A DNA stretch of 64,000 nucleotides from Candidatus Udaeobacter sp. GTDB taxonomy: Bacteria > Patescibacteriota > Patescibacteriia > Magasanikbacterales > GWA2-37-8. The notes under the pieces are model-generated. The model was not told the origin of the DNA. It worked only from the letters and a program-made list of their open reading frames with translations, and ran no database searches. Within the stretch, counting starts at the first letter, position 1. Each line of letters begins with the position of its first letter. The translations under genes were made by a program, and so were the position numbers. The stretch is from positions 461-64,460 of the forward strand of contig DATION010000001.1 of assembly GCA_035473115.1 (NCBI GenBank), read 5' to 3'. Positions 22,299 to 64,000 of this stretch are shown here, one piece after another.

Positions 22299-22320
22299 AA
22301 TTTTAAATAAAAATTAAAAC

Positions 22321-22355
22321 AAAAAACAGCCTTTGATTAAAACGCTGTTTTTTGT
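22321..22355. repeat. 35-bp perfect direct repeat, copy 1 (also the bidirectional terminator of proS and of the gene at 22462-23244)
   Basis: AAAAAACAGCCTTTGATTAAAACGCTGTTTTTTGT, identical to 23482-23516. Hairpin AACAGC/GCTGTT with A/T flanks. Confidence 0.8.
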
Positions 22356-23473: not shown

Positions 23474-23481
23474 GATGGAAC

Positions 23482-23516
23482 AAAAAACAGCCTTTGATTA
23501 AAACGCTGTTTTTTGT
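23482..23516. repeat. 35-bp perfect direct repeat, copy 2 (terminator of the gene at 23566-24258)
   Basis: Identical 35-mer to 22321-22355. The flanks differ. Confidence 0.8.
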
Positions 23517-23565: not shown

Positions 23566-24258
23566 TCAGCCGCCCTTTTTTCCTCGGCCCCCGCGCGCTG
23601 CCGCGCGGTGAACTTTGGCTCTCGCTGCCTTGTAGGCAGCGTGGGCCTTGGCCCCCGCGCTTGTGCCCGTGCTGGACTGCTTCGGCTGGTTCTCCTCGAG
23701 CCACTTCTCGTCCTGACAGCCATCGGCCATGCAGAACTTGAAGGAGACGGGGATCACTGCCTGGCAGCCCTGGCCAGAGCATCGGTGTCCGCAGTCCGAA
23801 CAGTAGTTCGGACCTTCGACTGGGAGTTCCGCGCCGCATCCATTCCCTTTGCAGAGTTTGGTAGTTGGCGCGAAGCTCTTGCATCCTTGGCAGAGCGGGT
23901 ACCATGTCGGGATCTGCCGACCACATCCACCCTTGCATGGGTGAATGCAGTCGTCACAGAGACCGAATCGTTTCCCGACCCGCACCTGGTTGGTGCATTG
24001 AGTGCCAGTTTCCGGATGTTCCCGGTTGCGGCACTGCTGGGTCTGGACAACGACTCGATCGGCCTTGGGTGGCGGTGCAGACTTCATGATGGTTGGTTCG
24101 GGCGTTGTTGCATCGCCCTCCTCCATCACAGCCGTGTGGATGGTCGCCTGTGGCGAGGCCGCTGGCGCCTCGCAGTTGGCGACTGCCTGGACAGGCTGGG
24201 TCTGCATGAGCACAGCAGAGAGAACTTCTTCCAGAACGTTGACGAGATCAGTGAGCAT
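23566..24258 (-). CDS. GC-rich Cys-rich hypothetical protein (multiple CxxC pairs)
   Basis: Start placed at MLTDL (24258), which has an AGGAGA SD 6 nt upstream. The ORF track extends it to 24303. CDDC, CQGC, CSDC and related pairs suggest zinc-ribbon-like modules. Confidence 0.45.
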   Translation of the reverse strand: MLTDLVNVLEEVLSAVLMQTQPVQAVANCEAPAASPQATIHTAVMEEGDATTPEPTIMKSAPPPKADRVVVQTQQCRNREHPETGTQCTNQVRVGKRFGLCDDCIHPCKGGCGRQIPTWYPLCQGCKSFAPTTKLCKGNGCGAELPVEGPNYCSDCGHRCSGQGCQAVIPVSFKFCMADGCQDEKWLEENQPKQSSTGTSAGAKAHAAYKAARAKVHRAAARGGRGKKGG

Positions 24259-24516
24259 GAGAATCTCCTCGTGGGATGTAGTGAACGGGAATGAACCGCA
24301 CACTACTTCCCTGAGAGATCATCTCGTGATCACTAGGTTGATGTGCGGTAGATATTCACAAGCATAAAGCTTCAACGAAAATTTGGTTGTCGTTCCATGA
24401 TCCCCTCCGTAGGTAATTGTACAATGAACGCGGAAACGGCCGTCCGAAGGACAGTTATTCCGACGGAAAGAATTTTTTCCTTTCCCTAGGAACAACTTTC
24501 ATATGAGTAATAAAAG

Positions 24517-33920: not shown

Positions 33921-34007
33921 GTTTAAGTAAAATTTACCTAAAACTAAGTGCATCGTTTTATTTTTTATGGTATAATAAAAACCAATAAAGAAAGCCACTT
34001 TATTTTT

Positions 34008-37000: not shown

Positions 37001-40000
37001 TTACTATTATAAAGTAAAAACTGTTGATGCGGATGGCAACACTTCAGTTTTTTCTTCCATTGTAAATGGGCGCGCTAATGGCGCCCAAGATGCTGGTGAA
37101 GGTGGAGGCGGGTCAGGTGTAGGCAGCGATCCGGTTATTACTTCGGTCGCCACTTCTTCACCTACTCCATCTTCTATCACCATTACTTGGGATACGGATG
37201 CTTTATCTAATTCTGTTGTTGGTTTTTCTACTACCCCAGGAAATTTTACCGATAATACCGTGACGGTTAATTCCATGGTAAATAATTCTTCCGGAGTAGG
37301 AAATCACAATGTGGTTTTGGGAGGACTTGTTCCAAATACTACTTATTATTTTAATGTAAAATCTGTTTCCGCCAGCAACGCTTCTTCAACCGATAGTAAT
37401 GGCGGTAATGGTTATATTTTTACCACTCCTTCCGGCCCGACTATTACCGGGGTTTCGGCCGTAGAAGTTAATAATACTTTTGCCAGAGTAGTTTGGAGTA
37501 CTTCAGAAAATTCTAACAGTTCAGTAATTTATTCCACTTCCACAAGCTTAACCAACTCTGTAACCACCAGTTCTGTTCAAATGGGCACTGCCCATGATAT
37601 GACTTTAACTGGTTTAACAGCCGGTACGAGATATTATTTTTACGTTCAATCGGTCAACGGATCCGGAGTAACTTCCACAGATAAAAATTTAGTAGGTGGC
37701 ATACTTCAATATTTTAATTTGGCGACTACTCTAGACAGCACCGGTCCGACAATTTCTTCCATTGCCACCACTACCAGCGATAACTCGGCTAACATTACTT
37801 GGAACACAAACGAAAGCGCCGATTCGCAAATTATTTATGGTCTTACGACTAGTTATGGCTCCACTACTACTTTAGATAGTACTTTTACTACTCAACATTT
37901 AATGACTCTCTCGGGACTTAGTTCTTCAACAGCTTATCATTTCAAAATATTATCCAGAGATAAAAATAATAATTTAACAGCTTCAGCTGATCAATTAATA
38001 ATTACTTCCGCTACTCCCGATACTACCGCGCCAATTATTACTAGTGTTGCCACCTCTAGCGTATCTCTGACCGGCGCCACTGTTACTTGGACAACAGACG
38101 AGTTAGCTTCCTCAATTGTTGAATACGGTATTACCACTTCTTCATATAGCAGTCTGGCTGGTTCAAATTCCGATTCAGTCACTTCGCATTCTGTTTCTTT
38201 AGCTAGTCTGAGCGGCAATACTGCTTATTATTTTAGAGTTAGATCAGCTGATTCGGCCGGCAATTCGGCCATGAGTGATAATAGCGGCCAGGGCTGGCAA
38301 TTTGTTACCGTAGCCGATACCACTGGTCCGGTAATTTCGGATGTAAATCTTTTGGTCAATGATACTTCGGTAGCAATTTCTTGGACAACCAATGAGCCGG
38401 CTAGTTCAGAAGTTGATTATGATACAACTTCCAGTACATTCGGTTTTTCTAGCTCCACTGCTTCACTCGTTACCAACCATACAATTACTATTACCGGTTT
38501 AACAACTAATGTTACTTATTTCTTCCGCCTAAAATCCACGGATAGTGCTGGTAATACTACTATAGATAATAATGGCGGTGCTGCTTATAGCTTTACTACT
38601 CAACAGACTCCGGGCTTGGTTAGAGTAGGTGGCGGCGGTGGCGGAGCGCCAAGAGATACCGATCCTCCGGAAATTAGCAATCTTAGCATAACCGATATTG
38701 CTCCTAGCTCAGCTAGTGTTATTTGGCAAACCAGTGAAGATGGTAATTCTTTGGTACGGTTTGGATCAAGTATTAAATATGGAACTTTAACCGGTAATGA
38801 TTCAGAACTGCTTACTTCCAAACATAATGTCAGTCTGTTTGATTTAAAACCAGGACAAACCTATCATCTAAGAGCCGTAACTTATGATGCTGCCGGTAAT
38901 CGCGCCGAATCAATCGATAAAACTTTTTCAACTTTGAATTCAGACGGTTCGGAAGTTACCCCAAGCACTAGCACCGAAAAGACACCGGAAGAAGAGGTGA
39001 CTCCGGAAACCCAATTTATATCCGATTCTTTGCAGAAGGCTTCAAGTCAATCTTTGCAAAAGTTCCTAGCTGATATAGCTTCTAATCCATTCTTGAAAAA
39101 TATTCCTGAAGATAAGTTTATTCAAGCTATTTTCGAAATGACCAGTAAAGTAGTTGAAGCTCCGACCATCGTTGGAGTTAAACCGACAGTAGAAGTAAAA
39201 GGAACCTCCGCTCTTATTAGGTGGTCGACAGATAAAAAATCTTCCTCTGAGTTAAACTATGCCAGAGATGTTGATTATAAGCCTGCTTCTAATAACGCTT
39301 ACACTAACGCAGCTGTTAATCCGGATGAATTTAGTGTTAACCATTCTGTACAATTAACTGGTCTTGATCCGGGAGTCTTATATCACTTTAAAGTAAGTTC
39401 AAAAGGCTTAATTGGTCCGGCAGCTGTCAGCGGTGACTATACTTTCTTAACCACCGGTGATCTGCCGATAATTTCCAATATTAAAGTGGCCAGACCAACT
39501 GAATCGCAGTCTTCTATCATAGTTGATTGGAGAACCAATATTCCGACTGCCGGTACCGTAGAATATAAGAATGTTAAATCCGGACAATCCTTGACCCAAG
39601 GAGACGAAACATTGCTCGTTAATCATGAAGTTGCTCTCAAAGGTTTGGAGGGCGGCGTAAATTATACTTTAGTTATCAAAGCTAGAGATGAATTCAAAAA
39701 CGAAGTTGCCAGTTTGCCGATAACATTCTCCACTCTTTTAGATAAGATAAGTCCGGTAATAACTAAACTTTCTTCCGAATCAACTTTATACCCGGGTAAA
39801 GATTCTAAAGTTCAAACTATTATTTCTTGGGAGACAGATGAGCCGGCTACTTCTCAAGTGTTCTATCAGGAAGGTTTGGCTGGTGATAATGTAATTTCGT
39901 TGCCGCTAGACACCTCGCTTAATACTCGCCACGTGGTGGTAATAACCAAATTTAAACCTGGCACAGTTTATAAATATTGGGTAGAATCAAAGGATCTGGC

Positions 40001-40124
40001 AGGCAATAATGGAAAGTCAGAAATATTTTCTATTCTTACGCCGCAGCAAAAAGAAACGATTGTTGATATTATTATTAATAATTTCCAATCAGTGTTTGGC
40101 TGGACAAAGAATATAGGTTTGTAG
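34008..40124 (+). CDS. Giant (about 2,038 aa) cell-surface protein: N-terminal TM anchor, Kelch-like beta-propeller repeats, then an array of fibronectin-III-like domains
   Basis: Start at the ATG downstream of an extended -10 (TGGTATAAT, about 33963-33971). Repeated YRYSISGNSWT blades. Many FN3-like units (VTWTTDE...S.VEYG..., ARVVWSTSENS...). Gly runs. Ser/Thr-rich. Confidence 0.7.
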   Translation: MKRGQIFSLYPVLFKRKLKRLFLLFKEKYNPHLIIIKKKFHVTVAVILLTVILVNLFQFWSVPIVQGATYTFVQRDWSGGVSNSVIVHPDNQTGWNSFSTSTNTFTSGTTTVSIASSTYSSTDDGTFSSTGSATGGGFSNGATSTTSISGSGSSASIKLSGSTTAVNRVTATTTMTGAFYHGGGQMVGAAGSDYLYIIEGGNRAAPLRRLTISTAATSSLATYTYAYFGAQLLWNGSDDYIYLAEGQNDKFDRYSISGNSWTSMANFPASLPTDVSETAALRYNTEDYIYFFRGSRFADFYRYSISGNSWSSLTSLPIVAGYGIQATRDANSDSIYVLPANGTNFYRYSIAGDSWTSMAAVPLSFGTTTNAGILHDEGSDYIYLLVGDHLYRYSISGNSWTTMADASSVNPDFGTTLLHTAGEDTIYVTGQWDCCASVRVWAYSISGDSWTQYAIVSNHSGGYGSPNKTAFRRTSDESFYFITAAGGDSEVFKYTISQTIYNSSGNFTSASLDLGVAKMNSLSWTSTTPSGVGSNSIQFQLAANNDNSTWNYVGPDGTNSTFFTSNGTTSFPSSLLNKRYWRYKAFLTTADTTVSPSLDSVTFSYSSYATSSSLISSIYDTVDPTNVLASIGWSPFLPTSTTIKFQLRTGSSTSSINSATWVGPDGTASTFFTNSSGETTTSTMRDGSGDRYFQYKAFLQTTNPAFTPVLSSVTSTYVVNANPEIQNVSASENGSGVVTITYQARDPDTSTGTVNPGFVSSTFEYLDANGAYQTIPANQLSAGANSNLAVQGVNWTTSTVSWTLPSGLNIAASRIRVTVNDNEAANNTAASSSPTFQIDSVAPSATSVIVDGSQTPALLTFNVSDSSTLFMKVSENSTLSDVSTWSAFTATTTFTLSSNPDTVYAQFKDVYGNTSTIVHATTPQTPNSFIVQDNSNVLNGATDYRLFVAWRVVATPSPGFGSYKVYRSEDQSTWTLISTISSISDNFVTDNTTVSNTLYYYKVKTVDADGNTSVFSSIVNGRANGAQDAGEGGGGSGVGSDPVITSVATSSPTPSSITITWDTDALSNSVVGFSTTPGNFTDNTVTVNSMVNNSSGVGNHNVVLGGLVPNTTYYFNVKSVSASNASSTDSNGGNGYIFTTPSGPTITGVSAVEVNNTFARVVWSTSENSNSSVIYSTSTSLTNSVTTSSVQMGTAHDMTLTGLTAGTRYYFYVQSVNGSGVTSTDKNLVGGILQYFNLATTLDSTGPTISSIATTTSDNSANITWNTNESADSQIIYGLTTSYGSTTTLDSTFTTQHLMTLSGLSSSTAYHFKILSRDKNNNLTASADQLIITSATPDTTAPIITSVATSSVSLTGATVTWTTDELASSIVEYGITTSSYSSLAGSNSDSVTSHSVSLASLSGNTAYYFRVRSADSAGNSAMSDNSGQGWQFVTVADTTGPVISDVNLLVNDTSVAISWTTNEPASSEVDYDTTSSTFGFSSSTASLVTNHTITITGLTTNVTYFFRLKSTDSAGNTTIDNNGGAAYSFTTQQTPGLVRVGGGGGGAPRDTDPPEISNLSITDIAPSSASVIWQTSEDGNSLVRFGSSIKYGTLTGNDSELLTSKHNVSLFDLKPGQTYHLRAVTYDAAGNRAESIDKTFSTLNSDGSEVTPSTSTEKTPEEEVTPETQFISDSLQKASSQSLQKFLADIASNPFLKNIPEDKFIQAIFEMTSKVVEAPTIVGVKPTVEVKGTSALIRWSTDKKSSSELNYARDVDYKPASNNAYTNAAVNPDEFSVNHSVQLTGLDPGVLYHFKVSSKGLIGPAAVSGDYTFLTTGDLPIISNIKVARPTESQSSIIVDWRTNIPTAGTVEYKNVKSGQSLTQGDETLLVNHEVALKGLEGGVNYTLVIKARDEFKNEVASLPITFSTLLDKISPVITKLSSESTLYPGKDSKVQTIISWETDEPATSQVFYQEGLAGDNVISLPLDTSLNTRHVVVITKFKPGTVYKYWVESKDLAGNNGKSEIFSILTPQQKETIVDIIINNFQSVFGWTKNIGL

Positions 40125-40158: not shown

Positions 40159-41496
40159 ATGGATCCGATTATTAAAACAGAAAACATTAAAGTTATTTAT
40201 AATAGAGGGCAGGATAATGAATATATCGCTCTTAATGATATAAGTATTGAGGTGTTTCCCCAGGAGTATACAATTTTTTTTGGACCTTCCGGCTGCGGGA
40301 AATCGACTTTGCTTTATACAATTCTTGGACTGCAAAGACTAAGCGAAGGAAAATTGTATATCCAGGGCCGGGATAGCGCCTCTTTTACAGAGGAAGAAAA
40401 GAGCAAGATGAGTTCACAGTTTTTTGGGATAGTTTTCCAAAATTTTAACTTGATATATTCTTTAAATGTTATTGATAATATCGCTCTGCCCCAGGTGTTT
40501 ATTGAAGCTAATCAGGAAGAAAGGCTGGCCAAAGCTCAAAGCCTGCTCACTCGTTTTGGCATAGCAACCAGAGCCAAGAATTTACCGGCATCTCTTTCGG
40601 GTGGTCAGCAGCAAAGAGTAGCCATTTGTCGATCTTTGATTAATGACCCTTTGATCCTTTTGGCTGATGAACCGGTTGGAAATTTGGATAGTGAATCTGC
40701 TAGAATAGTAATGCAATCGCTTTATGATATTAATAAGAAAGATAAAAAAACGGTAATTCTGGTTACTCACGATCCGAGCTATCTGCCATATGCCGACCGA
40801 GTCTATTATTTTAAAGATGCTAAGTTTGAAAAAGTTGTGCAAAATAGAAATCCTAAAAAAATGGTCAATGGCGGTATTGAAATTAAACCTAAGGGCAAAG
40901 AAGATGAAAACGGTGAATCTGATCTTTTGGGTGAATTAGAAAAATTAGCGCGAGTGCATCATTTTATGACCGTGCCTCAGTTAAAGGCTTGGAGCATAAC
41001 CAATTATCTGATCGATGATTTTACTATTAATCAGGTAGAAAGACTGGAACAATTTATGGAAGAAATGTTGGCTGGAAAATTAAGTCAGCATGCATTTTTT
41101 GAAAATCTAAATACCCCGTATAATGAAGGAGGCGTAGGTTTGTACAAAGGCACTGCTATCAGGTTCGTTAAAGAAACGGCCGCTATCTTAAAACAAGTCA
41201 ATGAATTTTTGGCAGAGGTAAAAAAGCATAATAATTCGGATAATAATATAAAAATATTGAGCATGTTAAGCAGATTCTTATTACAAGAACACCGGGGCAA
41301 TCTGAAAGCGGAAGAGATCGAAAGATTTGAAGCCGGCATCAGAGATCGTTTAAATGGCAGTATGAACTCTGTCCAGTTTAGTAAATTATTACATAAGCAT
41401 TTTGCAGATGGCGGCGTGGGGTTAAGCGTAACAACGGCCGAACATTTATCGGAGAGGCTGCAGATTATCCTGACCCAAGCTTATGAAGTACATTGA
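40159..41496 (+). CDS. ABC transporter ATP-binding protein (MacB/LolD-like) with a C-terminal extension of about 215 aa
   Basis: Walker A GPSGCGKST, signature LSGGQQQRV, Walker B LLADEP. Residues after about 230 have no recognised domain. Confidence 0.8.
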   Translation: MDPIIKTENIKVIYNRGQDNEYIALNDISIEVFPQEYTIFFGPSGCGKSTLLYTILGLQRLSEGKLYIQGRDSASFTEEEKSKMSSQFFGIVFQNFNLIYSLNVIDNIALPQVFIEANQEERLAKAQSLLTRFGIATRAKNLPASLSGGQQQRVAICRSLINDPLILLADEPVGNLDSESARIVMQSLYDINKKDKKTVILVTHDPSYLPYADRVYYFKDAKFEKVVQNRNPKKMVNGGIEIKPKGKEDENGESDLLGELEKLARVHHFMTVPQLKAWSITNYLIDDFTINQVERLEQFMEEMLAGKLSQHAFFENLNTPYNEGGVGLYKGTAIRFVKETAAILKQVNEFLAEVKKHNNSDNNIKILSMLSRFLLQEHRGNLKAEEIERFEAGIRDRLNGSMNSVQFSKLLHKHFADGGVGLSVTTAEHLSERLQIILTQAYEVH

Positions 41497-42682
41497 TCTG
41501 TTTTCTTTATCAACCAGAATGTTTCGCACTAATCCGTCACGTACCTGGCTGACAGTTTTAGGTATCAGTGTTGGAATTTCAGCAGTTTTATTTCTGGTCT
41601 CTTTTGGCTATGGGTTGCAGAATATTATTTTGCAAAAAATAGTTTTTAACCAGGCTTTGCTTAGTGTAGTGGTTACTCCCAGCAGTGACTTGATTGTTTT
41701 AGACGACCAGGCTTTGGCTGATATTGGTAAAATAAAAAATGTTGTTGATGTGGCCGGTTTGGCAAAATTTACAGGGCAGGTATCTCTGGACGGAATAAAT
41801 GGCACAGTCGATATGAGAGCGGTTAGCGCTTCTTTTTTGGCCTATGCCGGCACAATGGTAAAGTATGGAAATTTATACGAGGAAAAGGATCAAAATCAGA
41901 TTTTGATTTCTGACGCTGTTTTAAAATTATTTGGTATTACCGATGCCAGCACGGTGCTGGGAAAAAAAGTTAGTTTAAAAATTTTTGCCAATAAAAGCGG
42001 CGCCGATCAGTCGCAATTAGAAATTGTTGATATACCGGGCAGTTATACCATCAAAGGTGTTATAGAAGACAGCCAAGAGAGTTATATTTTTTTACCGCTT
42101 AAAGAAGTGACTCAGTATGTAAAAGTGGATCGTTATGAACAGGCACGGGTAAAAGTAAATAATAGTACTGATCTGGCGGGAGTCAAAGAAGAAGCTATAG
42201 CCAAAGGCTACCAAACCCAATCGCTATCGGAAACAATTGATCAAGCCAATAAAATCTTTCATGTGATCCAGATAGTCTTGGGTTTGTTTGGGGCCGTGGC
42301 TTTGATAGTTTCTTCTATCGGCATGTTTAATACGATGACTGTAACTTTGCTTGAACGTACCAATGAAATTGGTATTATGCGCGCTTTGGGAGCCAGCAAA
42401 TCAAATTTACGCAATTTATTTTTGGCTGAATCGGTAATCATTGGTTTTTTGGGCGGGTTGGTCGGCACGGCCTTGGGTATTATCGCCGGTCAAATTTTTA
42501 ATTTAATTATCAATGGTTTGGCTGCTAAGTTTGGCGGAGCCAAAATATCTTTATTTGTTTATCCAATTTCTTTTTTGTTAATAATTGTTTTCCTTTCATT
42601 ATTTATTGGTTTTTTGTCAGGAATATTTCCGGCGCGCCGGGCTGCAGGTATGGATCCGTTGGAAGCTTTGCGCTATAAGTAA
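41483..42682 (+). CDS. ABC transporter permease, FtsX/MacB family
   Basis: N-terminal TM, large periplasmic domain, C-terminal FtsX 3-TM bundle. Confidence 0.8.
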   Translation: MKYIDLFSLSTRMFRTNPSRTWLTVLGISVGISAVLFLVSFGYGLQNIILQKIVFNQALLSVVVTPSSDLIVLDDQALADIGKIKNVVDVAGLAKFTGQVSLDGINGTVDMRAVSASFLAYAGTMVKYGNLYEEKDQNQILISDAVLKLFGITDASTVLGKKVSLKIFANKSGADQSQLEIVDIPGSYTIKGVIEDSQESYIFLPLKEVTQYVKVDRYEQARVKVNNSTDLAGVKEEAIAKGYQTQSLSETIDQANKIFHVIQIVLGLFGAVALIVSSIGMFNTMTVTLLERTNEIGIMRALGASKSNLRNLFLAESVIIGFLGGLVGTALGIIAGQIFNLIINGLAAKFGGAKISLFVYPISFLLIIVFLSLFIGFLSGIFPARRAAGMDPLEALRYK

Positions 42683-54703: not shown

Positions 54704-55978
54704 ATGTTGGAAAAATTGCAGCAAGTTTGGGGGATAAAAGAGATTAGAAATAAAATTTTGTATGTACTGGGAATGCTGGTAATTTTTAGATTAACCGCTC
54801 ATATTCCTATTCCTGGAATTAACTTAAATAATTTACGACAATTTTTGGCTGGTAATCAGATATTCGGTTTGTTAGATGTTTTTTCCGGCGGCACAATGAA
54901 GAATTTTTCCATCGTCATGTTAGGTGTCGGTCCATATATTACTTCTTCCATTATATTTCAATTGTTAGCCATGATTGTACCAAAATTAGAGGAGCTCTCT
55001 AAAGAAGGCGAGTCAGGACAGCAAAAAATAAATACTTACACCAGATTGCTTACCGTACCATTGGCATTTTTACAGTCTTACGGCACTATAAAATTATTAA
55101 ATAGATCATCTTTGCCAATTATTACCGATTTGTCAGCATTCCGCTTAATCGCGATCATGATGACTATCACTGCCGGCACAATGTTTTTAATGTGGATCGG
55201 TGAGCTTATTTCTGAACAGAAAGTCGGCAACGGTGTTTCCCTTTTGATCTTTGCCGGTATTGCTGCCAGTTTGCCAGGTGGTTTGCGCAATCTTTTGTTG
55301 AATTATAATTCAGCTGATTTCTTTACCTTTGTTTTATTTGCCGGCGTGGCTATTTTAACAATAGTGGGAGTTGTATTTATCAATGAAGGCCAGAGAAATA
55401 TTCCGGTAAATTACGCCAAACAAGTCAGAGGCAATCACATCCAAGGCGGTGGCAGTACTCATTTGCCATTACGCGTAAATATGTCCGGTGTTATACCTAT
55501 CATCTTCGCCATTTCTTTGATTTTATTTCCATCACTGATCGCTCAATTTTTTACTCAAGCTAGAACTCCTTGGTTGGCAAATTTGGCGGTTCATGTTATT
55601 AGTTTGTTCCAGAATCAGTTATTCTATGGAATACTGTACTTCTTGTTAGTGTTTGGCTTTACTTATTTTTATACCGCCGTCATCTTCCATCCGCAAAAAA
55701 TGGCCGAGAATTTACAGAAACAGGGCGGTTTTATTCCTGGTATTCGTCCGGGTACAGAAACCGAAAAGTATCTTGGTCAAACCATGAATAGAATTAATCT
55801 TACTGGCGCATTATTTTTGGGGGTTATCGCTATCTTGCCATTACTGGTTCAATATTTTATGGGTACCAAAAGTTTGGCTATTGGTGGTACCAGCTTACTA
55901 ATCGTAGTATCGGTTGCCATAGAAACAGCTAAACAGATAGATGCTCAGATAACAATGCATGCTTACGATACGGTCTAG
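54704..55978 (+). CDS. secY: Preprotein translocase SecY
   Basis: Ten TM helices, SecY family sequence. Confidence 0.95.
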   Translation: MLEKLQQVWGIKEIRNKILYVLGMLVIFRLTAHIPIPGINLNNLRQFLAGNQIFGLLDVFSGGTMKNFSIVMLGVGPYITSSIIFQLLAMIVPKLEELSKEGESGQQKINTYTRLLTVPLAFLQSYGTIKLLNRSSLPIITDLSAFRLIAIMMTITAGTMFLMWIGELISEQKVGNGVSLLIFAGIAASLPGGLRNLLLNYNSADFFTFVLFAGVAILTIVGVVFINEGQRNIPVNYAKQVRGNHIQGGGSTHLPLRVNMSGVIPIIFAISLILFPSLIAQFFTQARTPWLANLAVHVISLFQNQLFYGILYFLLVFGFTYFYTAVIFHPQKMAENLQKQGGFIPGIRPGTETEKYLGQTMNRINLTGALFLGVIAILPLLVQYFMGTKSLAIGGTSLLIVVSVAIETAKQIDAQITMHAYDTV

Positions 55979-56106
55979 TGTAGATTTTCATTTCTCTCGC
56001 TTTATGATGCAAAATAAAAAAATTACAACTTGGTCTGGCTTTACTTCTTCTGCCTTTTCGTTCCGATCGAGAGGGTAGGCTTTGAAATTCTTCAAGTCTT
56101 CGAAAT

Positions 56107-56131
56107 CTGCCCTGCTCGGGCGGATTTTTTG
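56107..56131 (+). terminator. Terminator after secY
   Basis: CTGCCC-TGCTC-GGGCGG followed by ATTTTTTG. Confidence 0.55.
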
Positions 56132-56156
56132 TTACCAACAACCAAAGAGGTGTGTC

Positions 56157-56933
56157 ATGCCAGATATGCTATCTCTCACTGATTATAGATGGACTAGCAG
56201 AGATTTTAGTTGGGTATTTGAGTTTTTGCCTGGGTCTCCAGTAATTATGACTGTACCGCACGATCGGGGTTTTTCTCATTTTGATTTGCTTGGTTTTCTA
56301 GAACCTAGAAAAGATGGTGTTAAAGGTAGAGATAAGCATGTTTGGCCAATAGCAAAAGATATAATGTCAAAATTTGGTATTAATGCTGTGCGAGGACTTT
56401 TTCCACGTCATTTTATAGATTATAATCGTTCCCCACAAGGTATTAATTATTACCCACTTTCGCAAAAGAAAGCGCAAACTGCTTTTGATGACGAGTCATT
56501 ACAGCCGATTTATGATGTTTATCATGAAGCAGTGGCTGATCTTATTATGAAATCTATATTAAAGTATGGAAAAGAAAGATGCTTGCTAATTGATCTGCAT
56601 GGGTTTACTACTCAGCCTCCATATGGAGATTATGATCTTATTTTTGGAACTGGCAATCGAGTTACCATTAATAATTCAAGTATCGATCAGCTGCTAGCTG
56701 ATTTCTTTTCAGCTCGAGGTTATAAGGTTTTTTTGCCTTTGCCAGCCTCTATGGGGCCTCTAGAGGATTGGTATAGTGCAGACTTTACAACTCGGCATTA
56801 TGCGCAAAGATTTGGTATTGATGCTATCCAAATTGAGGTAGCTAAAAGATTTAGAACAGAAGAGGGGGTAGATGCCGGTCGAAGATTATCAGTTGATTTT
56901 GCTGAGTTTTTTAGGTCTAATTTTAATCTATAA
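56157..56933 (+). CDS. Putative N-formylglutamate amidohydrolase-like zinc hydrolase
   Basis: Start at MPDMLSL; the ORF-track start overlaps the terminator. CLLIDLHG resembles the metal-binding motif of the FGase/AstE-AspA-like fold. Low confidence. Confidence 0.35.
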   Translation: MPDMLSLTDYRWTSRDFSWVFEFLPGSPVIMTVPHDRGFSHFDLLGFLEPRKDGVKGRDKHVWPIAKDIMSKFGINAVRGLFPRHFIDYNRSPQGINYYPLSQKKAQTAFDDESLQPIYDVYHEAVADLIMKSILKYGKERCLLIDLHGFTTQPPYGDYDLIFGTGNRVTINNSSIDQLLADFFSARGYKVFLPLPASMGPLEDWYSADFTTRHYAQRFGIDAIQIEVAKRFRTEEGVDAGRRLSVDFAEFFRSNFNL

Positions 56934-57170
56934 ATTGTTCTTTTATTTAATTAGGTCCAATGTTAGTAATCCATTGGACCTTCTAGTTGATTTTTAGGTA
57001 GTAACATCAAAAGCATGAGGGGGATTGAAAAAAGTTTGGTAAAATGTTAGTATAGCAAGCGCTATTATTTGTTTTTATATAGATTTATTATATGGGCTAA
57101 AAAGCCCATATAAACTTATTCGTTCGAAAATATCTTGGCAAGCCAGATATTTCCCTCACTCATTTCGTTT

Positions 57171-57833
57171 ATGAAAAAGATAATTATCATGATTGGTCCG
57201 CCCGGTTCTGGCAAGGGAACTCAGGCTAAAAAGATTGCTGCTAAGTATGGCTATCAGCATATTTCTACCGGTGATTTATTGCGCGCTTTGACCAAAAAAA
57301 CCGATCTCAGTGCCTTGGAAAAAGAAGCTGCCGACAAGATGAAATCAGGAGAACTTGTATCTGATAGTTTGATTTATAAATTAGCTTTCAGCGAGATTGA
57401 AAAAAGTTTAGCTAAAGGAATGGGAGTAGTGCTGGATGGAGCAATCCGCAATTTAGAGCAGGCGCAAAATTTTCAAAATTTTTTTAAAGAAAAAGATTTG
57501 AGTGAAGAAGTTTTAGCTTTAGAAATTAGTTTAAGTGATGAAGATTCTTTTAATAGACTAACTAAGCGTCGCATTTGTACAGCTTGCGGAGAAATAGTTC
57601 CTTGGCTGCCTAGTACAGAAAGTTTAACAGCTTGTCCAAAATGCGGAGGAAAATTAGAGACCAGACATGATGATGATCCAAAAGTTATCAAAGAAAGAAT
57701 TAAAAAACAAGGCAACGATGCTCTGAGTCCGATAATAAATTTTTATCAGGATTTAGGCGTATTAAAAAAAGTTGATGGCAACCAAACGATTGAAGATGTA
57801 GAAAAGGGTATTACGGATATTTTACAATTTTAA
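57171..57833 (+). CDS. adk: Adenylate kinase (with zinc-ribbon lid)
   Basis: GPPGSGKGTQA. LID has CTACGE...CPKCGG. Start at the internal ATG. Confidence 0.9.
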   Translation: MKKIIIMIGPPGSGKGTQAKKIAAKYGYQHISTGDLLRALTKKTDLSALEKEAADKMKSGELVSDSLIYKLAFSEIEKSLAKGMGVVLDGAIRNLEQAQNFQNFFKEKDLSEEVLALEISLSDEDSFNRLTKRRICTACGEIVPWLPSTESLTACPKCGGKLETRHDDDPKVIKERIKKQGNDALSPIINFYQDLGVLKKVDGNQTIEDVEKGITDILQF

Positions 57834-59045: not shown

Positions 59046-59654
59046 ATGCTAGCTGTTGTTTTGGCCAGAAAAAATTGGCGCGAATTTGATCAGATGATTT
59101 CGCTATATACTCAGCAGCAAGGGAAGATTGAAGTTTTGGCCAAAGGAATCAAAAAAATTATCAGTAAAAATTCTTCTAATTTAGAAATTTTATCTTTAGT
59201 TGAAGCGGAGTTTGCTCAAGGCAAAGAAATAGACTATTTGACCAAAGTTCAGCCTGTAAAAATTTTTAAAAATATTTATTCTTATGCCGATAAAATGTTT
59301 ATCGCTAGTTTTGTGGTAAAAATTATTGATACTAATACTTTGCCCCAAGAAAAAGACGAAAATATTTTTAATTTACTATTAAGTTTTTTAGAGTTTTTAA
59401 ATTCAGCGGCAGCAGTTAATCCTTTAAATTTGGCGATCGGATTTATTTTTAAATTTTGGCAATGTTTGGGTTTTGGTACTGAGCAAGCAGATAAAGATAT
59501 TTGGCTGCGAGGGAATTGGCTGGAAATAAACGAGCTTCCACAAACAAAAAATGAACAGTTGAAAACATATGAGTTTGCCAAAAATTTTGCTGTAGCTAAT
59601 GGCGGCAAGATTTTAACTGATTGGTCGATTGTGAATAAAATATTTGACTTCTAA
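59046..59654 (+). CDS. recO: DNA repair protein RecO (probable)
   Basis: RecO-like N-terminal OB-fold pattern. 202 aa. Confidence 0.55.
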   Translation: MLAVVLARKNWREFDQMISLYTQQQGKIEVLAKGIKKIISKNSSNLEILSLVEAEFAQGKEIDYLTKVQPVKIFKNIYSYADKMFIASFVVKIIDTNTLPQEKDENIFNLLLSFLEFLNSAAAVNPLNLAIGFIFKFWQCLGFGTEQADKDIWLRGNWLEINELPQTKNEQLKTYEFAKNFAVANGGKILTDWSIVNKIFDF

Positions 59655-59718
59655 TTATAACAGTGTTATCATTTTGAGAATTTGGGGCAAAAACAACTTG
59701 CTTTAGGATGGCAAAAAG

Positions 59719-60012
59719 ATGAACGCTCAAACTTTTCAAAAAGCTGTCGCAGCCTACATTCGTTACCGGCCATATACTGAACCTGAATGTGACAGATTTG
59801 ATCTTGAGAGAGTGCTTCAGTTATGTGCAATTCTTGCTGGTCCAGAAACCAAGGAGCAAAAGATCATCAAGATCAAAAGTTGGGCAGCAGACCCAGTTCA
59901 ACCTTGGTATGAGACCAAGCAAGGTGAAAAAAAGATCGCTCACCAAGCTGAGCGTGAGCAAGTTCTTCGTTATATAGAAGAACAGCTCCAGGAGGTAAAG
60001 TATGCGTCTTAG
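59719..60012 (+). CDS. Hypothetical protein
   Basis: 97 aa. Followed by a CCTTGC...GCAAGG hairpin with T-run. Confidence 0.4.
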   Translation: MNAQTFQKAVAAYIRYRPYTEPECDRFDLERVLQLCAILAGPETKEQKIIKIKSWAADPVQPWYETKQGEKKIAHQAEREQVLRYIEEQLQEVKYAS

Positions 60013-60158
60013 CAGATTTTTGTCACCCCCGCCCAAGCGGAAGATAGGCAAAAATTGCCGGCGCGACCCTTGCTCCAGAAATGGCGCAAGGTTTTCTTTT
60101 TCACTTGCTATTTTTAGGCAAAATGATAAGATAAAATGGTTATAAGCTAATCATTATT

Positions 60159-61451
60159 ATGCAAGTTTTTATTAAAAATTTGATGGATTTGGTGGGTCAG
60201 GAGGTAGAAATTAAAGGCTGGTTATATAATAAACGATCTTCCGGGCCGATCTCTTTTTTGGAGTTGCGTGATGGCACGGGCTGGATACAGGCAGTAGCGG
60301 TAAAATCTGGTTTAAGTGAAGAAGTATGGGCTTTGGTAGACAAAGCTAGTCAGGAGTCTTCAGTGGTAGTTGTGGGAACTGTCAGCAAGCATCCAAAAAA
60401 AGAAAATGTTTATGAATTACAGGTAAAAGATTTTAAGATTATTCAATTAGCCCAAGAATACCCAATTGCTCACAAAGAGCACGGGCCAGATTTTTTGATG
60501 GATAATCGCCATTTATGGCTGCGCAGCAAAAGGCAGTGGGCAATTTTGCGCGTCCGTGACGCCATCATCACCGCCATAGGCGAATACTTGCATCAGCAAA
60601 ATTTTATTAAAGTTGATTCGCCAGTGTTTACTCCTAATGCTTGTGAAGGTACTTCTACGCTTTTTCCGGTTCCATATTTTGATATCGGCACTGCTTACTT
60701 GTCTCAATCCGGTCAACTATATATAGAAGCAGCTATTGCTTCGGTTGGCCGATGTTATGATTTTGGTCCGGTATTTAGAGCGGAAAAGAGTAAAACCAAA
60801 CGCCACTTAACAGAATTTTGGATGATGGATGCCGAAGCGGCTTTTGTAGAGCATGCAGAAAATTTAAAAATTCAAGAAGGATTAGTACGGCATATTATTC
60901 GTTACTGTTTAAAAAATTGTTTGGAAGAATTACAAATTTTAGAACGCAATCTTGAGCCTTTGCAAAAAGCTGATCAGCCGTTTACTCATTATACTTATGA
61001 TCAGGCGATTGCTAAATTGCATGAAGTTGGTTCGGATATTAAGTATGGCGAAGATTTGGGCAATGATGACGAAGGTTTGCTTACCAAAGACTCGGCTGTA
61101 CCGGTATTTATTACCAAGTGGCCAAAAACAATCAAGCCTTTTTATATGAAGCGTGATCCGGAAAATACCGAGCTCGTCTTAAATGATGATTTGATTGCTA
61201 CCGAAGGCGCTGGTGAGCTGATTGGCGGTAGTCAGCGTGAAGATGATTTTGATTTATTGTTATCTAGAATAAAAGCTGAAGGTCTGGACGAGTCTGATTA
61301 TGATTGGTATCTGGATTTACGCAAATATGGCAGTGTGCCGCATTCTGGTTTTGGTATTGGTCTAGAGCGCACGGTGCGTTGGATTACGGGCGTAGAACAT
61401 ATTCGAGAATGTATTCCTTTTCCTCGGACTATTGGTAGGTTGAGACCATAA
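60159..61451 (+). CDS. asnS: Asparagine--tRNA ligase
   Basis: Class IIb. GGSQRE and VPHSGFGIGLER...IPFPR closely match AsnRS motif 3. Confidence 0.8.
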   Translation: MQVFIKNLMDLVGQEVEIKGWLYNKRSSGPISFLELRDGTGWIQAVAVKSGLSEEVWALVDKASQESSVVVVGTVSKHPKKENVYELQVKDFKIIQLAQEYPIAHKEHGPDFLMDNRHLWLRSKRQWAILRVRDAIITAIGEYLHQQNFIKVDSPVFTPNACEGTSTLFPVPYFDIGTAYLSQSGQLYIEAAIASVGRCYDFGPVFRAEKSKTKRHLTEFWMMDAEAAFVEHAENLKIQEGLVRHIIRYCLKNCLEELQILERNLEPLQKADQPFTHYTYDQAIAKLHEVGSDIKYGEDLGNDDEGLLTKDSAVPVFITKWPKTIKPFYMKRDPENTELVLNDDLIATEGAGELIGGSQREDDFDLLLSRIKAEGLDESDYDWYLDLRKYGSVPHSGFGIGLERTVRWITGVEHIRECIPFPRTIGRLRP

Positions 61452-61483
61452 AAGAGGTCAAAGAAAATCAAGTTAAACAAAAA

Positions 61484-61557
61484 AACCGCTAATCTTAGCG
61501 GTTTTTTTGTTTTATAACAATAGGAGTATTGACTAAAAGTTAAAAGTAGTATATATT
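61484..61557 (+). promoter_or_regulatory. Cassette 1 terminator-promoter unit
   Basis: Hairpin ACCGCTAA-TCT-TAGCGGT with A6/T7 flanks (also the asnS terminator). Then TTGACT (61529), 17-nt spacer, TATATT (61552). Confidence 0.6.
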
Positions 61558-61602
61558 TGTGGCGCATGGCAACACGCCATGAATGCTAACAAGGAGATAT
61601 AG

Positions 61603-62124
61603 ATGAAGACCCTTCTGTTGACACTGGCATTCCTCCTCCCGATGGTAGCCCCTGGCTGTGCCATAGAGCCCGAAGGAGGCAGTGCCCCACCCGATGCGAG
61701 TGCGGCTCCGGCTCCGACTGCTGACAAGCCGACGGCCAGTACTCGTACGTCAGATCCCGATGAGGGGTTTCGCCAGGACTGCGACTGGTTTCCAGATCAG
61801 CAGGTCTGCGGGGAAGATGGCGGAGGCGGTGGTGGTGGAGGTGGCGGCGGAGGCGGTGGTTCGTCATGCTGGATGAGCTGCTCACCTTACACGTGTTGGC
61901 TCTACCTGGATGGTGCCCTTCATTGGACGTTCCAGTGTACTACTGGTTCGGGAAACAGCACCTGCTCAAGTTCGGGGTGCGGTTCATGTCCGGCTCAGGG
62001 CGTGACCCCAGGATGCATCACCGGTTGTGGCAATGGTGGGGGGGACGACTACGCTCTGGCATTGTGCCGAGCTACTTGCTGGATCAATTCAACCTCTACA
62101 TGCTCAGGTGGCTACACGTCATAG
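61603..62124 (+). CDS. GC-rich secreted Cys-rich protein with a poly-Gly tract (paralog of 63218-63724)
   Basis: Signal peptide ending APGC. Pro/Ala-rich linker. G16 run. C-terminal domain with about 14 Cys. AGGAG SD. Confidence 0.6.
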   Translation: MKTLLLTLAFLLPMVAPGCAIEPEGGSAPPDASAAPAPTADKPTASTRTSDPDEGFRQDCDWFPDQQVCGEDGGGGGGGGGGGGGGSSCWMSCSPYTCWLYLDGALHWTFQCTTGSGNSTCSSSGCGSCPAQGVTPGCITGCGNGGGDDYALALCRATCWINSTSTCSGGYTS

Positions 62125-62189
62125 TAACTTAGTGTATTAGTAGAACCGCACCGCGCAAGTGGTGACGCTTCTCCGATACTAGATGGCCC

Positions 62190-62235
62190 GGACCCGGTGC
62201 AGCACGAAGTGCAGCCCGGGTCCTTTGTTTTATTG
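62190..62235 (+). terminator. GC-rich terminator of cassette 1
   Basis: GGACCCGG...CCGGGTCC followed by TTTGTTTTATT. Confidence 0.55.
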
Positions 62236-62286
62236 ATCAATTTTAAAATAATTTCTAAGATTTTTATAAAAAATTAAATTTAATGT

Positions 62287-62367
62287 ATAGAAAAATCGCT
62301 AATTTTAGCGATTTTTTTGTATTTTTTACAAAAGGGTATTGACAAAAAAATTAAAATAGTGTATATT
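62287..62367 (+). promoter_or_regulatory. Cassette 2 terminator-promoter unit
   Basis: Hairpin ATCGCTAA-TTT-TAGCGAT with A/T flanks. Then TTGACA (62339), 17-nt spacer, TATATT (62362): a perfect consensus -35. Confidence 0.6.
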
Positions 62368-62437
62368 TCTTTTCGCCTGGCAATTAGTTGTCGGGTACGC
62401 GGCGATCATGCCGTGGTTACAGGAGGTTCTAGTAAGA

Positions 62438-62623
62438 ATGAAGAAGGCAATCAAGACGTCGCTCACGTTGAACAGCGAGACCGTTCGGCAGCTCGGCACC
62501 ACCGAGCTGAAGGGGGTCGTCGGCGGTTACCAAACCGCCACCCGTGGCAACACGGACTGTGCCTCCGAAGCGACGGGGTGCTACACGACCGAATGGTCGT
62601 GTCCGGGCTGGAGCTGCTGGTAG
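62438..62623 (+). CDS. Double-glycine-leader peptide precursor (bacteriocin- or RiPP-like), 61 aa
   Basis: AGGAGG SD 10 nt upstream. Leader MKKAIKTSLTLNSETVRQLGTTELKGVVGG fits the LxxxELxxVxGG motif. The 31-aa core is Thr/Ser-rich with 4 Cys (...EWSCPGWSCW). Confidence 0.55.
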   Translation: MKKAIKTSLTLNSETVRQLGTTELKGVVGGYQTATRGNTDCASEATGCYTTEWSCPGWSCW

Positions 62624-62948
62624 CAGCCACACCCCTTGATTCCATCACCGAATGGAAACCACCAACAATGGGAGGGCATAATATGCGAACATCGAACCAG
62701 TGACCTTTGGCTATCGTCGCACGAGATCCGTTCGTTTCGAGAAGTTTGGCGACTGTTGGTCGCCTGGTTACATGGTTACGAAAATCGCTGACCTTCCGCA
62801 AGGATCAGTCAGCACCGCTGCCCATCACTGATGGGCAAACACACGAACGGAGCTCCGCAAGAGCTCCGAAACAGTGAGGACAACTGAGTGTGTCCGGAGA
62901 AGCTCGGCCGCGCAAGCAGCAGTACTTCTCCGACACCACACGACCCCG

Positions 62949-62983
62949 ACCCGGTGCACGAGCACCGGGTTCTCTGTTTTTAT
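62949..62983 (+). terminator. GC-rich terminator of cassette 2
   Basis: CCCGGTGC-ACGA-GCACCGGG followed by TTCTCTGTTTTTATT. Confidence 0.55.
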
Positions 62984-63081
62984 TAAGGAGTTGTTAAGAT
63001 TAAATCGGCCTTTTATTTTATTTATTATTTTCAATAATTTTTGATATTTTAGTAAAAAATTAAATTTGACTTGGAGAAAAA

Positions 63082-63159
63082 ACTGCTAGCTCTAGTGGTT
63101 TTTTTGGTTTTATAAAAATGGAGAGGGGTATTGACCGAAAGTCAAAAGTAGTGTATATT
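63082..63159 (+). promoter_or_regulatory. Cassette 3 terminator-promoter unit
   Basis: Hairpin ACTGCTAG-CTC-TAGTGGT with A6/T7 flanks. Then TTGACC (63131), 17-nt spacer, TATATT (63154). Confidence 0.55.
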
Positions 63160-63217
63160 TGCTCCGCCCAACAATTTTGTTTGGGTACAGTAACCTCCCC
63201 CCGTATAGGAGATACAA

Positions 63218-63724
63218 GTGCAGAATAGTGTCAAGAAGAAGTTTGAGATCATGAAGACGGCAGCGTTCGTTCTGGCTCTGGCCTCAGGCTCCGCCTGTGC
63301 CATTCCCGACGGACCCAACACCTCAGATGCGGGTACCGATCCCACTGGGAGTTCCACGGTGTCGTTGCAAGAGCAGCAGGACTGCAATGCCGACCCATCA
63401 TCATGTTGGGGAGGTGGCGGTGACCCCAGTGGTGGAGGAGGTGGTGGCGGCGGAGGAGGTGCGGTGTGCGTTGCAGATACATGTTACCCCAAACTGTGTT
63501 CGTACGATCAGGATACGCACGGAAATTGGGGGTATTGGTGCATTAAGCACCCAGCTGCCGACGCGGGCTGCTATTCGAGTGGGTGCAACAAGTGCGCGCC
63601 TGCAGCTGCGGGTGCGAACAAGCCCTGTTTTGATCACTGCTACACCCTTCCTACTCAATACCAATGGGCGGTGTGCGCGGCAGGTTGCGGAAACTCAACT
63701 CCCAGCGTCTGTGTCAGCATTTGA
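63218..63724 (+). CDS. GC-rich secreted Cys-rich protein with a poly-Gly tract (paralog of 61603-62124)
   Basis: GTG start 5 nt after an AGGAGA SD. Signal peptide ...LALASGSAC. G-rich run. C-terminal domain with about 14 Cys. Confidence 0.55.
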   Translation: MQNSVKKKFEIMKTAAFVLALASGSACAIPDGPNTSDAGTDPTGSSTVSLQEQQDCNADPSSCWGGGGDPSGGGGGGGGGGAVCVADTCYPKLCSYDQDTHGNWGYWCIKHPAADAGCYSSGCNKCAPAAAGANKPCFDHCYTLPTQYQWAVCAAGCGNSTPSVCVSI

Positions 63725-63911
63725 GACGCTGGCCCCTTTCGATCCTATGGCATGACATAGTCAGCTAGGCTCGTCCTAGCTGGCGCCCACACTGGATGGG
63801 CAAATCACACGCGTTCTTCGGAGCGCGCGAACAAGTGAGAACAACTGAACGGTCGTTCGGAGGAGTGCCACGCGCAAGCGATTGGCGTTGCTCCGACACC
63901 AGATGACCCCG

Positions 63912-63950
63912 ACCCGGCGCAGCACCAAGAGTGTAGCGCCGGGTCTCTGT
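63912..63950 (+). terminator. GC-rich terminator of cassette 3
   Basis: ACCCGGCGC...GCGCCGGGT followed by CTCTGTATTTAT. Confidence 0.5.
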
Positions 63951-64000
63951 ATTTATAGGCATATTCAATTGACAAAGACTTATCGTTCAACTATACTGCT

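Follow-up and report, generated by a model that had tools for sequence, protein, structure and literature searches.

The 64,000-nucleotide stretch of DNA analyzed here (the window) comes from a tiny-genome groundwater bacterium of the Magasanikbacteria, within the Candidate Phyla Radiation (CPR). Close to its right end it carries two genes, P1 (61603-62124) and P2 (63218-63724), which are genuine genes for predicted exported proteins with a densely Cys-rich C-terminal domain. Together with a gene for a peptide with a double-glycine (GG) leader, they form one array of three homologous expression cassettes. The reading that we prefer, with a probability of about 0.45, is that P1 and P2 are horizontally acquired cassettes resembling phage morons, and that they would encode surface-tethered, disulfide-rich lipoproteins. 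By analogy with known phage lipoproteins, these would probably serve in phage conflict or conflict at the cell surface.

The first-pass annotation of this DNA had given the two open reading frames (ORFs) these coordinates and a common architecture, and both hold. The parts of the two genes are listed below, with the evidence in parentheses.

61603-62124, forward strand: P1 gene, 173 amino acids (ORF, Shine-Dalgarno [SD] site, promoter, terminator, and profile matches)
61657-61659, forward strand: Cys19 of P1 at the lipobox position, after a signal peptide of residues 1-18 (sequence)
Residues 20-57 of P1, forward strand: acidic Pro/Ala linker (sequence)
61774-61818, forward strand: QDC..C module of P1 (sequence, QDCD block)
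61819-61860, forward strand: Gly14 run of P1 (sequence)
61861-62121, forward strand: 12-Cys domain of P1 (alignment of six family members)
63218-63724, forward strand: P2 gene, 168 amino acids from the GTG at 63218 (ORF, SD site, promoter, terminator, and profile)
63296-63298, forward strand: lipobox Cys27 of P2 (sequence)
Residues 28-53 of P2, forward strand: linker (sequence)
63377-63409, forward strand: QDC..C module of P2 (sequence, QDCN block)
63410-63460, forward strand: Gly tract of P2 (Gly4 at 63410-63421 and Gly10 at 63431-63460)
63461-63721, forward strand: 12-Cys domain of P2 (alignment of six family members)

The order of parts is the same in both proteins: first a signal region that is basic and hydrophobic and has Cys-Ala-Ile at its end, then an acidic linker of Pro, Ala, Ser, and Thr, a QDC...C module, a Gly run, and a Cys domain of about 85 residues. 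The hydrophobic regions close with APGC-AI in P1 and GSAC-AI in P2, and the QDC(D/N) blocks are present, both as the annotation had it. The Gly run, given as 10 to 16 residues, has 14 in P1 and is split into 4 and 10 in P2. The 14 Cys that had been counted in about 85 residues are those of each mature protein beyond the signal-region Cys; 12 of them belong to the C-terminal domain, where they fall within the last 80 residues or so and align column for column. A sequencing artifact in the poly-Gly tract, which had been named as a possible refutation, fails as an objection because GGC, GGA, and GGT codons are mixed and no homopolymer exceeds 2 nucleotides (nt); the homologs described below also have Gly-rich tracts at the equivalent position.

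SD sites were found at 61591-61596 (AAGGAG, P1) and 63208-63212 (AGGAG, P2), and the two frames were taken as real because each ORF has such a site, its own promoter, and its own terminator. The idea that the ORFs are spurious was rejected, since the frame is conserved in relatives. For P2, an alternative in-frame start exists at the ATG at 63251, giving a protein of 157 amino acids that begins with MKT and resembles the N termini of other family members. Both start candidates stand behind GGAGAT- or GAGAT-like motifs, and the segment 63208-63253 looks like a small duplication of the ribosome-binding site and start region. The GTG start lines up with the ATG of cassette 1 and with the start of the closest outside relative (on contig L081, see below), behind a common GGAGAT motif.

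A two-sequence profile of P1 and P2, searched against 1.84 billion (1.84e9) representative proteins, found four relatives, P0001 to P0004 (E values of 3.6e-18, 6.1e-12, 2.7e-10, and 4.9e-7). The 12 Cys and the overall architecture are common to all four, and each is a singleton cluster among about 15 billion (15e9) sequences. From the six sequences the Cys signature C-x(3,4)-C-x-P-x(2)-C-x(13)-C-x(8,9)-C-x(2)-S-G-x(0,2)-C-x(2)-C-x(8,10)-C-x(3)-C-x(11,15)-C-x(3)-C-x(7)-C was derived, which in the six-frame translation of the window matches only the P1 and P2 sites. Judged from these collections, the P family, with six known sequences, is very rare and previously undescribed. The annotation had called P1 and P2 paralogous. 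They do belong to the same family, but the term overstates their closeness: the BLASTP match between them is weak (31% identity, E = 0.006), and their Cys domains are 29% identical (17% without the invariant Cys), versus 39% for each of them to P0001. A recent tandem duplication of the two coding regions was rejected on the same grounds, each being near the most distant relative of the other.

Exact-sequence look-ups of P1, of P2 with both starts, and of the neighboring asnS found nothing on record, and a word-indexed homology search with P1 alone gave no match. Two word-indexed profile searches returned only P0002 and P0004; in the first of these, which used the full-length alignment A5, the best 8,000 candidates by shared words were scored, probably due to the Gly run. 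No match to P0003 or P2 was obtained by tblastn against 50,697 GenBank phages. Scans of IMG/VR and of JGI metagenomes with the family alignment found one contig only, a 185-kb phage.

This phage contig carries P0003. It is T4-like, has 69% GC, and is listed in IMG/VR; P0003 lies between gp19 tube/tail-sheath genes and T4-type baseplate genes, with two phage transfer RNAs (tRNAs) directly after it, and the sheath protein is 40% identical to that of the nearest cultured phage. P0001, the closest relative, was found on a 1.2-kb metagenomic contig (L081) whose downstream gene has a GC content at third codon positions (GC3) of 0.86, and P0002 on a contig of 1.6 kb. P0004 sits amid short overlapping ORFs, two of which match PHROGs (20427 and 464) and one of which is DUF4326. 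The contigs of the relatives all have 58 to 69% GC.

For the Cys-Ala-Ile ends, the annotation had offered a lipobox-like site or a signal-peptidase-I site followed by a Cys, and the former appears to be the better reading. The signal-end Cys is invariant in all six family members. The core of PROSITE PS51257 ([LVI][ASTVI][GAS]-C, with the Cys at about position 15-35) was used as the test, and it is matched by P2 (FVLALASGSAC) and by three of the four outside members, namely, P0001 (LTGC), P0003 (LASGC), and P0004 (LTAC); in the fourth, P0002 (LIGC), the Cys is too near the N terminus. We infer that P1 and P2 are lipid anchored with a disulfide-rich head, because the signal-end Cys is invariant, the relatives have textbook lipoboxes, and the Cys number is even. 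The suggestion of a surface-anchored protein with a flexible Gly tether fits the architecture.

The count of Cys after the lipobox Cys is even in every one of the six members (14 or 16), and the 12 invariant Cys most likely form six disulfides. The Cys domain is acidic, with one CxxC knuckle and no conserved His. Divergence is very fast in the loops between the Cys, but the Cys framework is kept, as are the regulatory flanks of the genes. Structure prediction, which had been proposed as a check, was informative only in part. With the six-sequence alignment, AlphaFold2 gave a predicted local distance difference test score (pLDDT) of 35 for the full-length protein, which is useless, and of 67.8 for the domain alone (predicted template modeling score of 0.54), in one of five models only. 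The domain model has a beta-hairpin and then helical segments, with two Cx3C pairs on or beside the last two segments. Foldseek searches with this model gave best E values of 3.9 (PDB) and 1.5 (BFVD), hence nothing below 1, and as the model is of moderate quality, this absence at the fold level is weak evidence. A profile search of all PDB sequences gave a best E value of 5.1. The bacteriocin-, defensin-, and chitin-binding-like folds named earlier as candidates are unsupported, because the family searches (Pfam among them), the PDB search, and the fold searches were empty. By these comparisons, the Cys domain is undescribed.

The genomic setting of P1 and P2 points to a foreign origin. The window is AT rich (GC of about 39%), and asnS, at 60159-61451, encodes a protein with 90% identity to that of a "Parcubacteria group" metagenome-assembled genome (MAG) and 63 to 84% identity to those of many Candidatus Magasanikbacteria MAGs. 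Nucleotide synteny with the nearest relative (L001) ends at 61456. In that relative, a promoter (TTGACAaag-17-TATACTg) stands about 12 nt after the asnS stop and is followed by tRNA-Leu(CAA). The corresponding part of the window contains the following.

61457-63960, forward strand: inserted array made up of three homologous cassettes, bounded by the asnS stop and the pre-tRNA-Leu promoter (synteny and absence from relatives)
63969-63997, forward strand: host promoter TTGACA-17-TATACT of the right flank, corresponding to the promoter before tRNA-Leu in the nearest relative, outside the insert and directly after cassette 3

The right boundary of the insert is only likely, because the tRNA-Leu would fall past the window end (64000). 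The insert is about 2.5 kb long and holds P1, the GG-leader peptide gene, and P2 in a single array. From 61457 to about 63960, three blocks of 55 to 63% GC are parted by spacers of about 30% GC. The coding sequences of the three genes have a GC content of 0.58 to 0.63, versus about 0.39 in the window, and a GC3 of 0.57 to 0.85, versus about 0.3 in the host. These genes are of foreign composition and, on the preferred reading, were horizontally acquired. Neither the cassette DNA nor homologs of any of the three insert proteins were found in 80 related CPR loci. The array is therefore a lineage-specific insertion in the variable gap between asnS and tRNA-Leu.

The same spot varies repeatedly among genomes. 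tRNA-Leu(CAA) lies downstream of asnS in each of the 11 relatives that were compared (the L001-L012 set), but its strand differs and its distance ranges from 50 bp to 4.8 kb. The gap often holds a gene for a membrane metallophosphoesterase-like protein of about 320 amino acids and sometimes a 290-amino-acid gene starting with MPPDKYTATW.

Each of the three genes is set in the same frame of regulatory elements, which consists of an AT-flanked hairpin, a sigma-70 promoter, a 5' stem-loop, an SD site, the GC-rich ORF, and a GC-rich 3' module with an intrinsic terminator. In the list below, R1 denotes a covariance model of the cassette 3' module.

61475-61512, no strand assigned: upstream hairpin of cassette 1, which is also the asnS terminator and bidirectional (inverted repeat I3, 18-nt arms, 100% complementary)
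61529-61557, forward strand: cassette 1 promoter TTGACT-17-TATATT (promoter scan)
61562-61586, forward strand: cassette 1 5' stem-loop at the predicted transcript start (-10.5 kcal/mol, z = -2.3), with the unpaired SD AAGGAG after it
62125-62233, forward strand: cassette 1 3' module with a GCAA-capped hairpin and the intrinsic terminator GGACCCGG..CCGGGTCC plus T-run (family D2; R1, 117.9 bits)
62186-62228, forward strand: cassette 1 terminator hairpin (terminator scan)
62285-62322, no strand assigned: upstream hairpin of cassette 2 (inverted repeat, terminator scan)
62339-62367, forward strand: cassette 2 promoter TTGACA-17-TATATT (11 of 12 consensus positions)
62438-62623, forward strand: GG-leader peptide gene, 61 amino acids, with leader MKKAIKTSLTLNSETVRQLGTTELKGVVGG and a 31-amino-acid core with 4 Cys (GC3 of 0.85)
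62624-62870, forward strand: GC-rich hairpin chain of the cassette 2 3' untranslated region (UTR), with CGCAAG-type loops (folding)
62871-62982, forward strand: cassette 2 3' module and terminator (stem at 62948-62971; R1, 112.4 bits)
63077-63109, no strand assigned: upstream hairpin of cassette 3 (inverted repeat I2, family D3)
63131-63159, forward strand: cassette 3 promoter TTGACC-17-TATATT (promoter scan)
63832-63955, forward strand: cassette 3 3' module and terminator (arms at 63911-63925 and 63931-63945; I6, D2; R1, 114.7 bits)

The upstream hairpin of cassette 1 is thus repeated before the other two cassettes (families D3/D4). The 33-nt promoter block GTATTGAC..TAGTRTATATTT and the 3'-module pattern each occur three times in the window, versus 0 expected. 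A 5' stem-loop is present in cassettes 2 and 3 and on L081 too, where its position is kept and its sequence differs. Expression of the cassettes is predicted to be high. The 3' UTR of cassette 2 is about 360 nt long (62624-62985), and its last 180 nt or so are common to the 3' UTR of cassette 3; the fold of 62621-62985 reaches -141.6 kcal/mol (z = -5.4). This UTR could be a stabilizer of the 3' end or an independent small RNA.

The most unusual aspect of the array is that its flanks are common across cargos and genomes. On L081, P0001 is surrounded by the same promoter block, 5' stem-loop, GGAGAT-start spacing, and 3' module (R1, 75.8 bits), and the roughly 200 nt upstream of it, promoter included, have 45% GC. 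Although the two genomic backgrounds are very different, the cassette has a composition of its own in both, which is what a unit that moves as a whole would show. Beyond these copies, R1 detected none in the window, nor any in the 35 related CPR loci, 5 P-homolog loci besides L081, and 80 viral loci that were searched. Scans of viral contigs with the exact 3'-module pattern gave chance matches in GC-rich phages. Rfam, at gathering and permissive thresholds, returned only terminator-like noise and no family for the cassette RNA. Integron gene cassettes were considered and rejected, given that each unit has its own promoter and that an integrase ORF is missing from the array and its immediate surroundings.

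At the level of DNA, the cassettes of the window are alike in their flanks, lipobox codons, and Gly run only. Flanks and cargos have discordant phylogenies: the flanks are clearly alike among the three window cassettes and more weakly related to those of L081, while the P1 and P2 domains are nearer to P0001. The coding regions may have diverged extremely fast once duplicated, with the flanks kept; alternatively, different cargos were placed into, or gene converted between, homologous flanks. Some exchange of cargo is favored, because the middle cassette holds an unrelated cargo in the same flanks. Taken further, this would make the array an instance of a portable expression cassette that moves between phages, high-GC bacteria, and CPR bacteria and whose cargo (rapidly evolving disulfide-rich lipoproteins or RiPP-like peptides) is swapped by recombination within the flanks, a tentative reading that we hold to be possible but doubtful.

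The cargo of the middle cassette also leads to phages. Homologs of the GG-leader peptide were found in four phage contigs of 69% GC, two of them of about 64 kb, as a 63-amino-acid gene with 43 to 44% identity (L209, 6001-6192; L212, 6001-6192; L210/L122, 11752-11943; L211/L148, 5271-5462). The leader pattern recurs in the phage peptides, as does an invariant C-x-SEATGC-x-T core. On every one of the four contigs the peptide gene is divergent beside a phage tRNA-Met and near the major-head gene, with a promoter-like site and then variable genes following. The first two of these homologs were met by luck in viral loci that had been fetched with a loose 3'-module pattern, and a targeted scan followed. 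The pattern match in those loci was deemed a coincidence, because it falls within coding sequence of the opposite strand, with no extended similarity to the UTRs. The leader of the window peptide scores just below two NCBIfam cutoffs (lant_leader_L1a, NF038153, 21.1 bits versus 22; TIGR04149, 17.6 versus 25). Phage-borne precursors of this type, with a GG leader and resembling those of ribosomally synthesized and posttranslationally modified peptides (RiPPs), seem to be undescribed. The annotation had seen in the locus a possible secreted antimicrobial or effector arsenal; a C39/ABC exporter or peptide-modifying enzyme was seen neither in the insert nor among 20 other window ORFs covered by partial Pfam scans, where the sole ATP-binding cassette (ABC) system is a MacB/FtsX-type pair (40159-42682). 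No GG-leader gene lies near any of the four outside P homologs, and no P-family gene lies in any of the four phage peptide loci. Because neither accompanies the other elsewhere, the two are not an obligate pair.

This absence bears on the possibility that P1 and P2 are immunity lipoproteins of the NisI/SpaI kind directed against the GG peptide, the array being a bacteriocin-plus-immunity set. Lipoprotein immunity factors are known for lantibiotics, the common promoter and 3' module of the three cassettes suggest coexpression, and the leader of the middle gene comes near the lanthipeptide/RiPP leader models. Nevertheless, with the association missing at the other loci, neither an exporter nor a modification enzyme seen among the window ORFs scanned, and no similarity to known immunity families, we regard this as quite improbable. 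Rather unlikely as well is that the proteins are secreted or released toxins or antimicrobials, with the Cys domain freed by signal peptidase I or by cleavage at the Gly run. A small, acidic, disulfide-rich domain with a fixed Cys framework and hypervariable loops is the pattern of toxins and defense peptides, AxA-like sites (GCA|I and ACA|I) are present, and the promoters are strong; the invariance of the signal-end Cys and the textbook lipoboxes of three of the four outside homologs speak against release, as do the lack of any match to a bacteriocin, defensin, or knottin family or fold and the failure to identify a partner protease or Gly-Gly endopeptidase. It is unlikely, too, that an episymbiotic CPR cell took P1 and P2 from the mobile gene pool of a GC-rich host and uses them as adhesins or host-interaction factors that bind surface structures of the host or mimic them. 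A surface tether on a long flexible linker and fast evolution would suit this role, and the GC-rich foreign origin is shared with other islands of the window, one of which encodes an exported RCC1-repeat protein (12558-13883). No adhesin domain was detected, however, the family is absent from the other CPR loci examined, and the clearest homolog context is a lytic-type T4-like phage.

Two further explanations concern the Cys residues and the frames themselves. Metal-binding lipoproteins, in which the 12 Cys coordinate ions or clusters, would suit an anaerobe, and CPR bacteria are mostly anaerobes; the 12 invariant Cys would make three Cys4 sites, and CxxC and Cx3C spacings exist. The single CxxC knuckle, the lack of a conserved His, the acidic and exported nature of the protein, and the absence of a metal-binding family match make this very improbable, and the Cys spacing instead resembles disulfide frameworks, with the two Cx3C pairs on or beside two predicted helical segments. 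That the ORFs are chance frames in GC-rich noncoding or misassembled DNA is effectively refuted. GC-rich DNA does give long ORFs in several frames (e.g., 63297-63755 and 61586-61885), but the frame and the identical Cys spacing recur in four independent metagenomic proteins, an SD site, promoter, and terminator accompany each ORF, AT-rich promoters lie between the GC-rich ORFs, and the same cassette stands on an independent contig.

The preferred reading, that of acquired cassettes for surface-tethered lipoproteins, implies the following course of events. Each of P1, P2, and the GG peptide would be expressed from a self-contained, moron-like cassette with a stabilizing 5' stem-loop. P1 and P2 would be exported through Sec, a lipid would be added to the invariant signal-end Cys, as the lipobox suggests, and the protein would be kept on the outer face of the membrane. 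There, the compact 12-Cys domain of about 85 residues would be presented on a long, flexible, acidic linker ending in the Gly run. The cargo would come from, or be shared with, the accessory-gene pool of phages, a link made because relatives of both cargo families occur in GC-rich phages. By analogy, the domain may act as a surface-tethered binding module in conflicts between phage and bacterium or between cells, for example, by preventing phage adsorption or the entry of DNA, like the superinfection-exclusion lipoproteins of the Ltp type.

Several observations weigh against this reading. P1 itself (VAPGC) has a Pro at -2 and does not match the PS51257 core, and for this protein a cut by signal peptidase I (GCA|I, ACA|I) is possible from the sequence. 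The Pfam scans of the 20 other window ORFs showed no lgt, lspA, or disulfide-forming enzymes. With a threshold of E <= 1, none of the six members matched a family of Pfam, PHROGs, or PADLOC, and neither P1 nor P2 matched one of NCBIfam; no sequence or fold similarity to Ltp was detected, and the structural model is weak. The contig is certainly that of a phage for only one of the four outside members, the phage copies are outside recognizable lysogeny modules, and within the 2.5-kb insert there is no integrase, repressor, or other phage gene. The exclusion role, finally, is argued by analogy only.

CPR bacteria have tiny genomes with few recognized defense or interaction systems, and yet this one devotes 2.5 kb of strongly promoted DNA to three exported products, whose only known relatives are in, or beside, GC-rich phages. 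If P1 and P2 do act at the surface against phages or neighbors, they would represent a new disulfide-rich family and an example of episymbionts borrowing phage accessory genes. The promoter and 3' RNA module common to three cargos and to an unrelated contig hint at a reusable, plug-and-play expression unit. Should the portable-cassette reading be true, the P family would be a new class of phage-derived surface defense or host-interaction module in a minimal-genome episymbiont.

Elsewhere in the window, three other islands of about 60% GC (GC3 of 0.69 to 0.73) were observed, each with its own TTGACA-17-TAxxxT promoter.

12558-13883, reverse strand: signal-peptide RCC1-repeat protein
22462-23244, reverse strand: 260-amino-acid charged protein
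23566-24303, reverse strand: CxxC-rich protein

After the genes for the charged and the CxxC-rich proteins, the same 34-nt terminator occurs in two identical copies (22320-22353 and 23481-23514), and no close viral relatives were found for the GC-island proteins I2a and I2b. Within the RCC1-repeat ORF, ARAGORN called a 91-nt tRNA-Ser(GCT) (13672-13762, reverse strand) that is not in Rfam at the gathering threshold and is probably a false positive. A 320-amino-acid ORF at 6493-7455 (reverse strand), in a slightly GC-richer stretch, encodes a full sigma-54 interaction domain and a Fis-type helix-turn-helix (E = 4e-63); in a minimal CPR genome one would not expect a sigma-54 activator. The ORF at 33948-40124 (forward strand), of 2,058 amino acids, has many repeats of the FN3/purple-acid-phosphatase-N type and Kelch motifs and is likely a giant surface protein; the MacB-type ABC ATPase and FtsX permease mentioned above come next. 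Two segments are unaligned with the nearest relative and represent small lineage-specific indels. One (55978-57177) holds an N-formylglutamate-amidohydrolase-like gene (56082-56933), and the other (59476-60166) holds a 97-amino-acid ORF of 44% GC with no family match (59719-60012).

The closest parallel in architecture is Ltp of the Streptococcus thermophilus phage TP-J34, in which a lipid anchor and a Ser-rich spacer carry an effector domain that keeps the DNA of superinfecting phages from entering, and relatives of Ltp are scattered among bacteria and phages (PMC3952083). P1 and P2 likewise combine an anchor, a low-complexity spacer, and a compact C-terminal domain, are predicted to lie outside the cytoplasmic membrane, and have phage-borne relatives. 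They differ from Ltp in lacking sequence similarity, in having a 12-Cys domain instead of the Ltp repeat domain, and in their location outside a prophage lysogeny module. Llp of T5 and Cor of phi80 and N15 are small receptor-blocking phage lipoproteins of the diderm outer membrane. They are small, phage encoded, and at the cell surface, as is proposed for the P family, but they are much shorter, are sited in the outer membrane of diderms, and have no detected similarity to P1 and P2. NisI and SpaI, the LanI-type immunity lipoproteins of lantibiotics, resemble P1 and P2 as predicted lipoproteins beside a leader-peptide gene, and differ in the lack of similarity, in the absence of lanB, lanC, or lanT nearby, and in that the association with the peptide is not kept at other loci. 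In conotoxins and defensins, as in the P family, the signal region, the untranslated flanks, and the Cys scaffold are conserved and the residues between the Cys diverge very fast, although these are soluble peptides of eukaryotes, and the P domain is on a predicted lipid anchor. As for the mode of expression, phage morons such as lambda bor and those of the HK97 type are single accessory genes with their own sigma-70 promoter and terminator. The cassettes of the insert agree with them in that each is a single gene with its own sigma-70 promoter and factor-independent terminator, of deviant base composition, and located between conserved genes. They depart from morons in residing in a bacterial chromosome without phage genes around, flanked by asnS and the tRNA-Leu promoter rather than inside a phage or prophage, and in forming three tandem units with near-identical flanks, which recur around the copy on L081.

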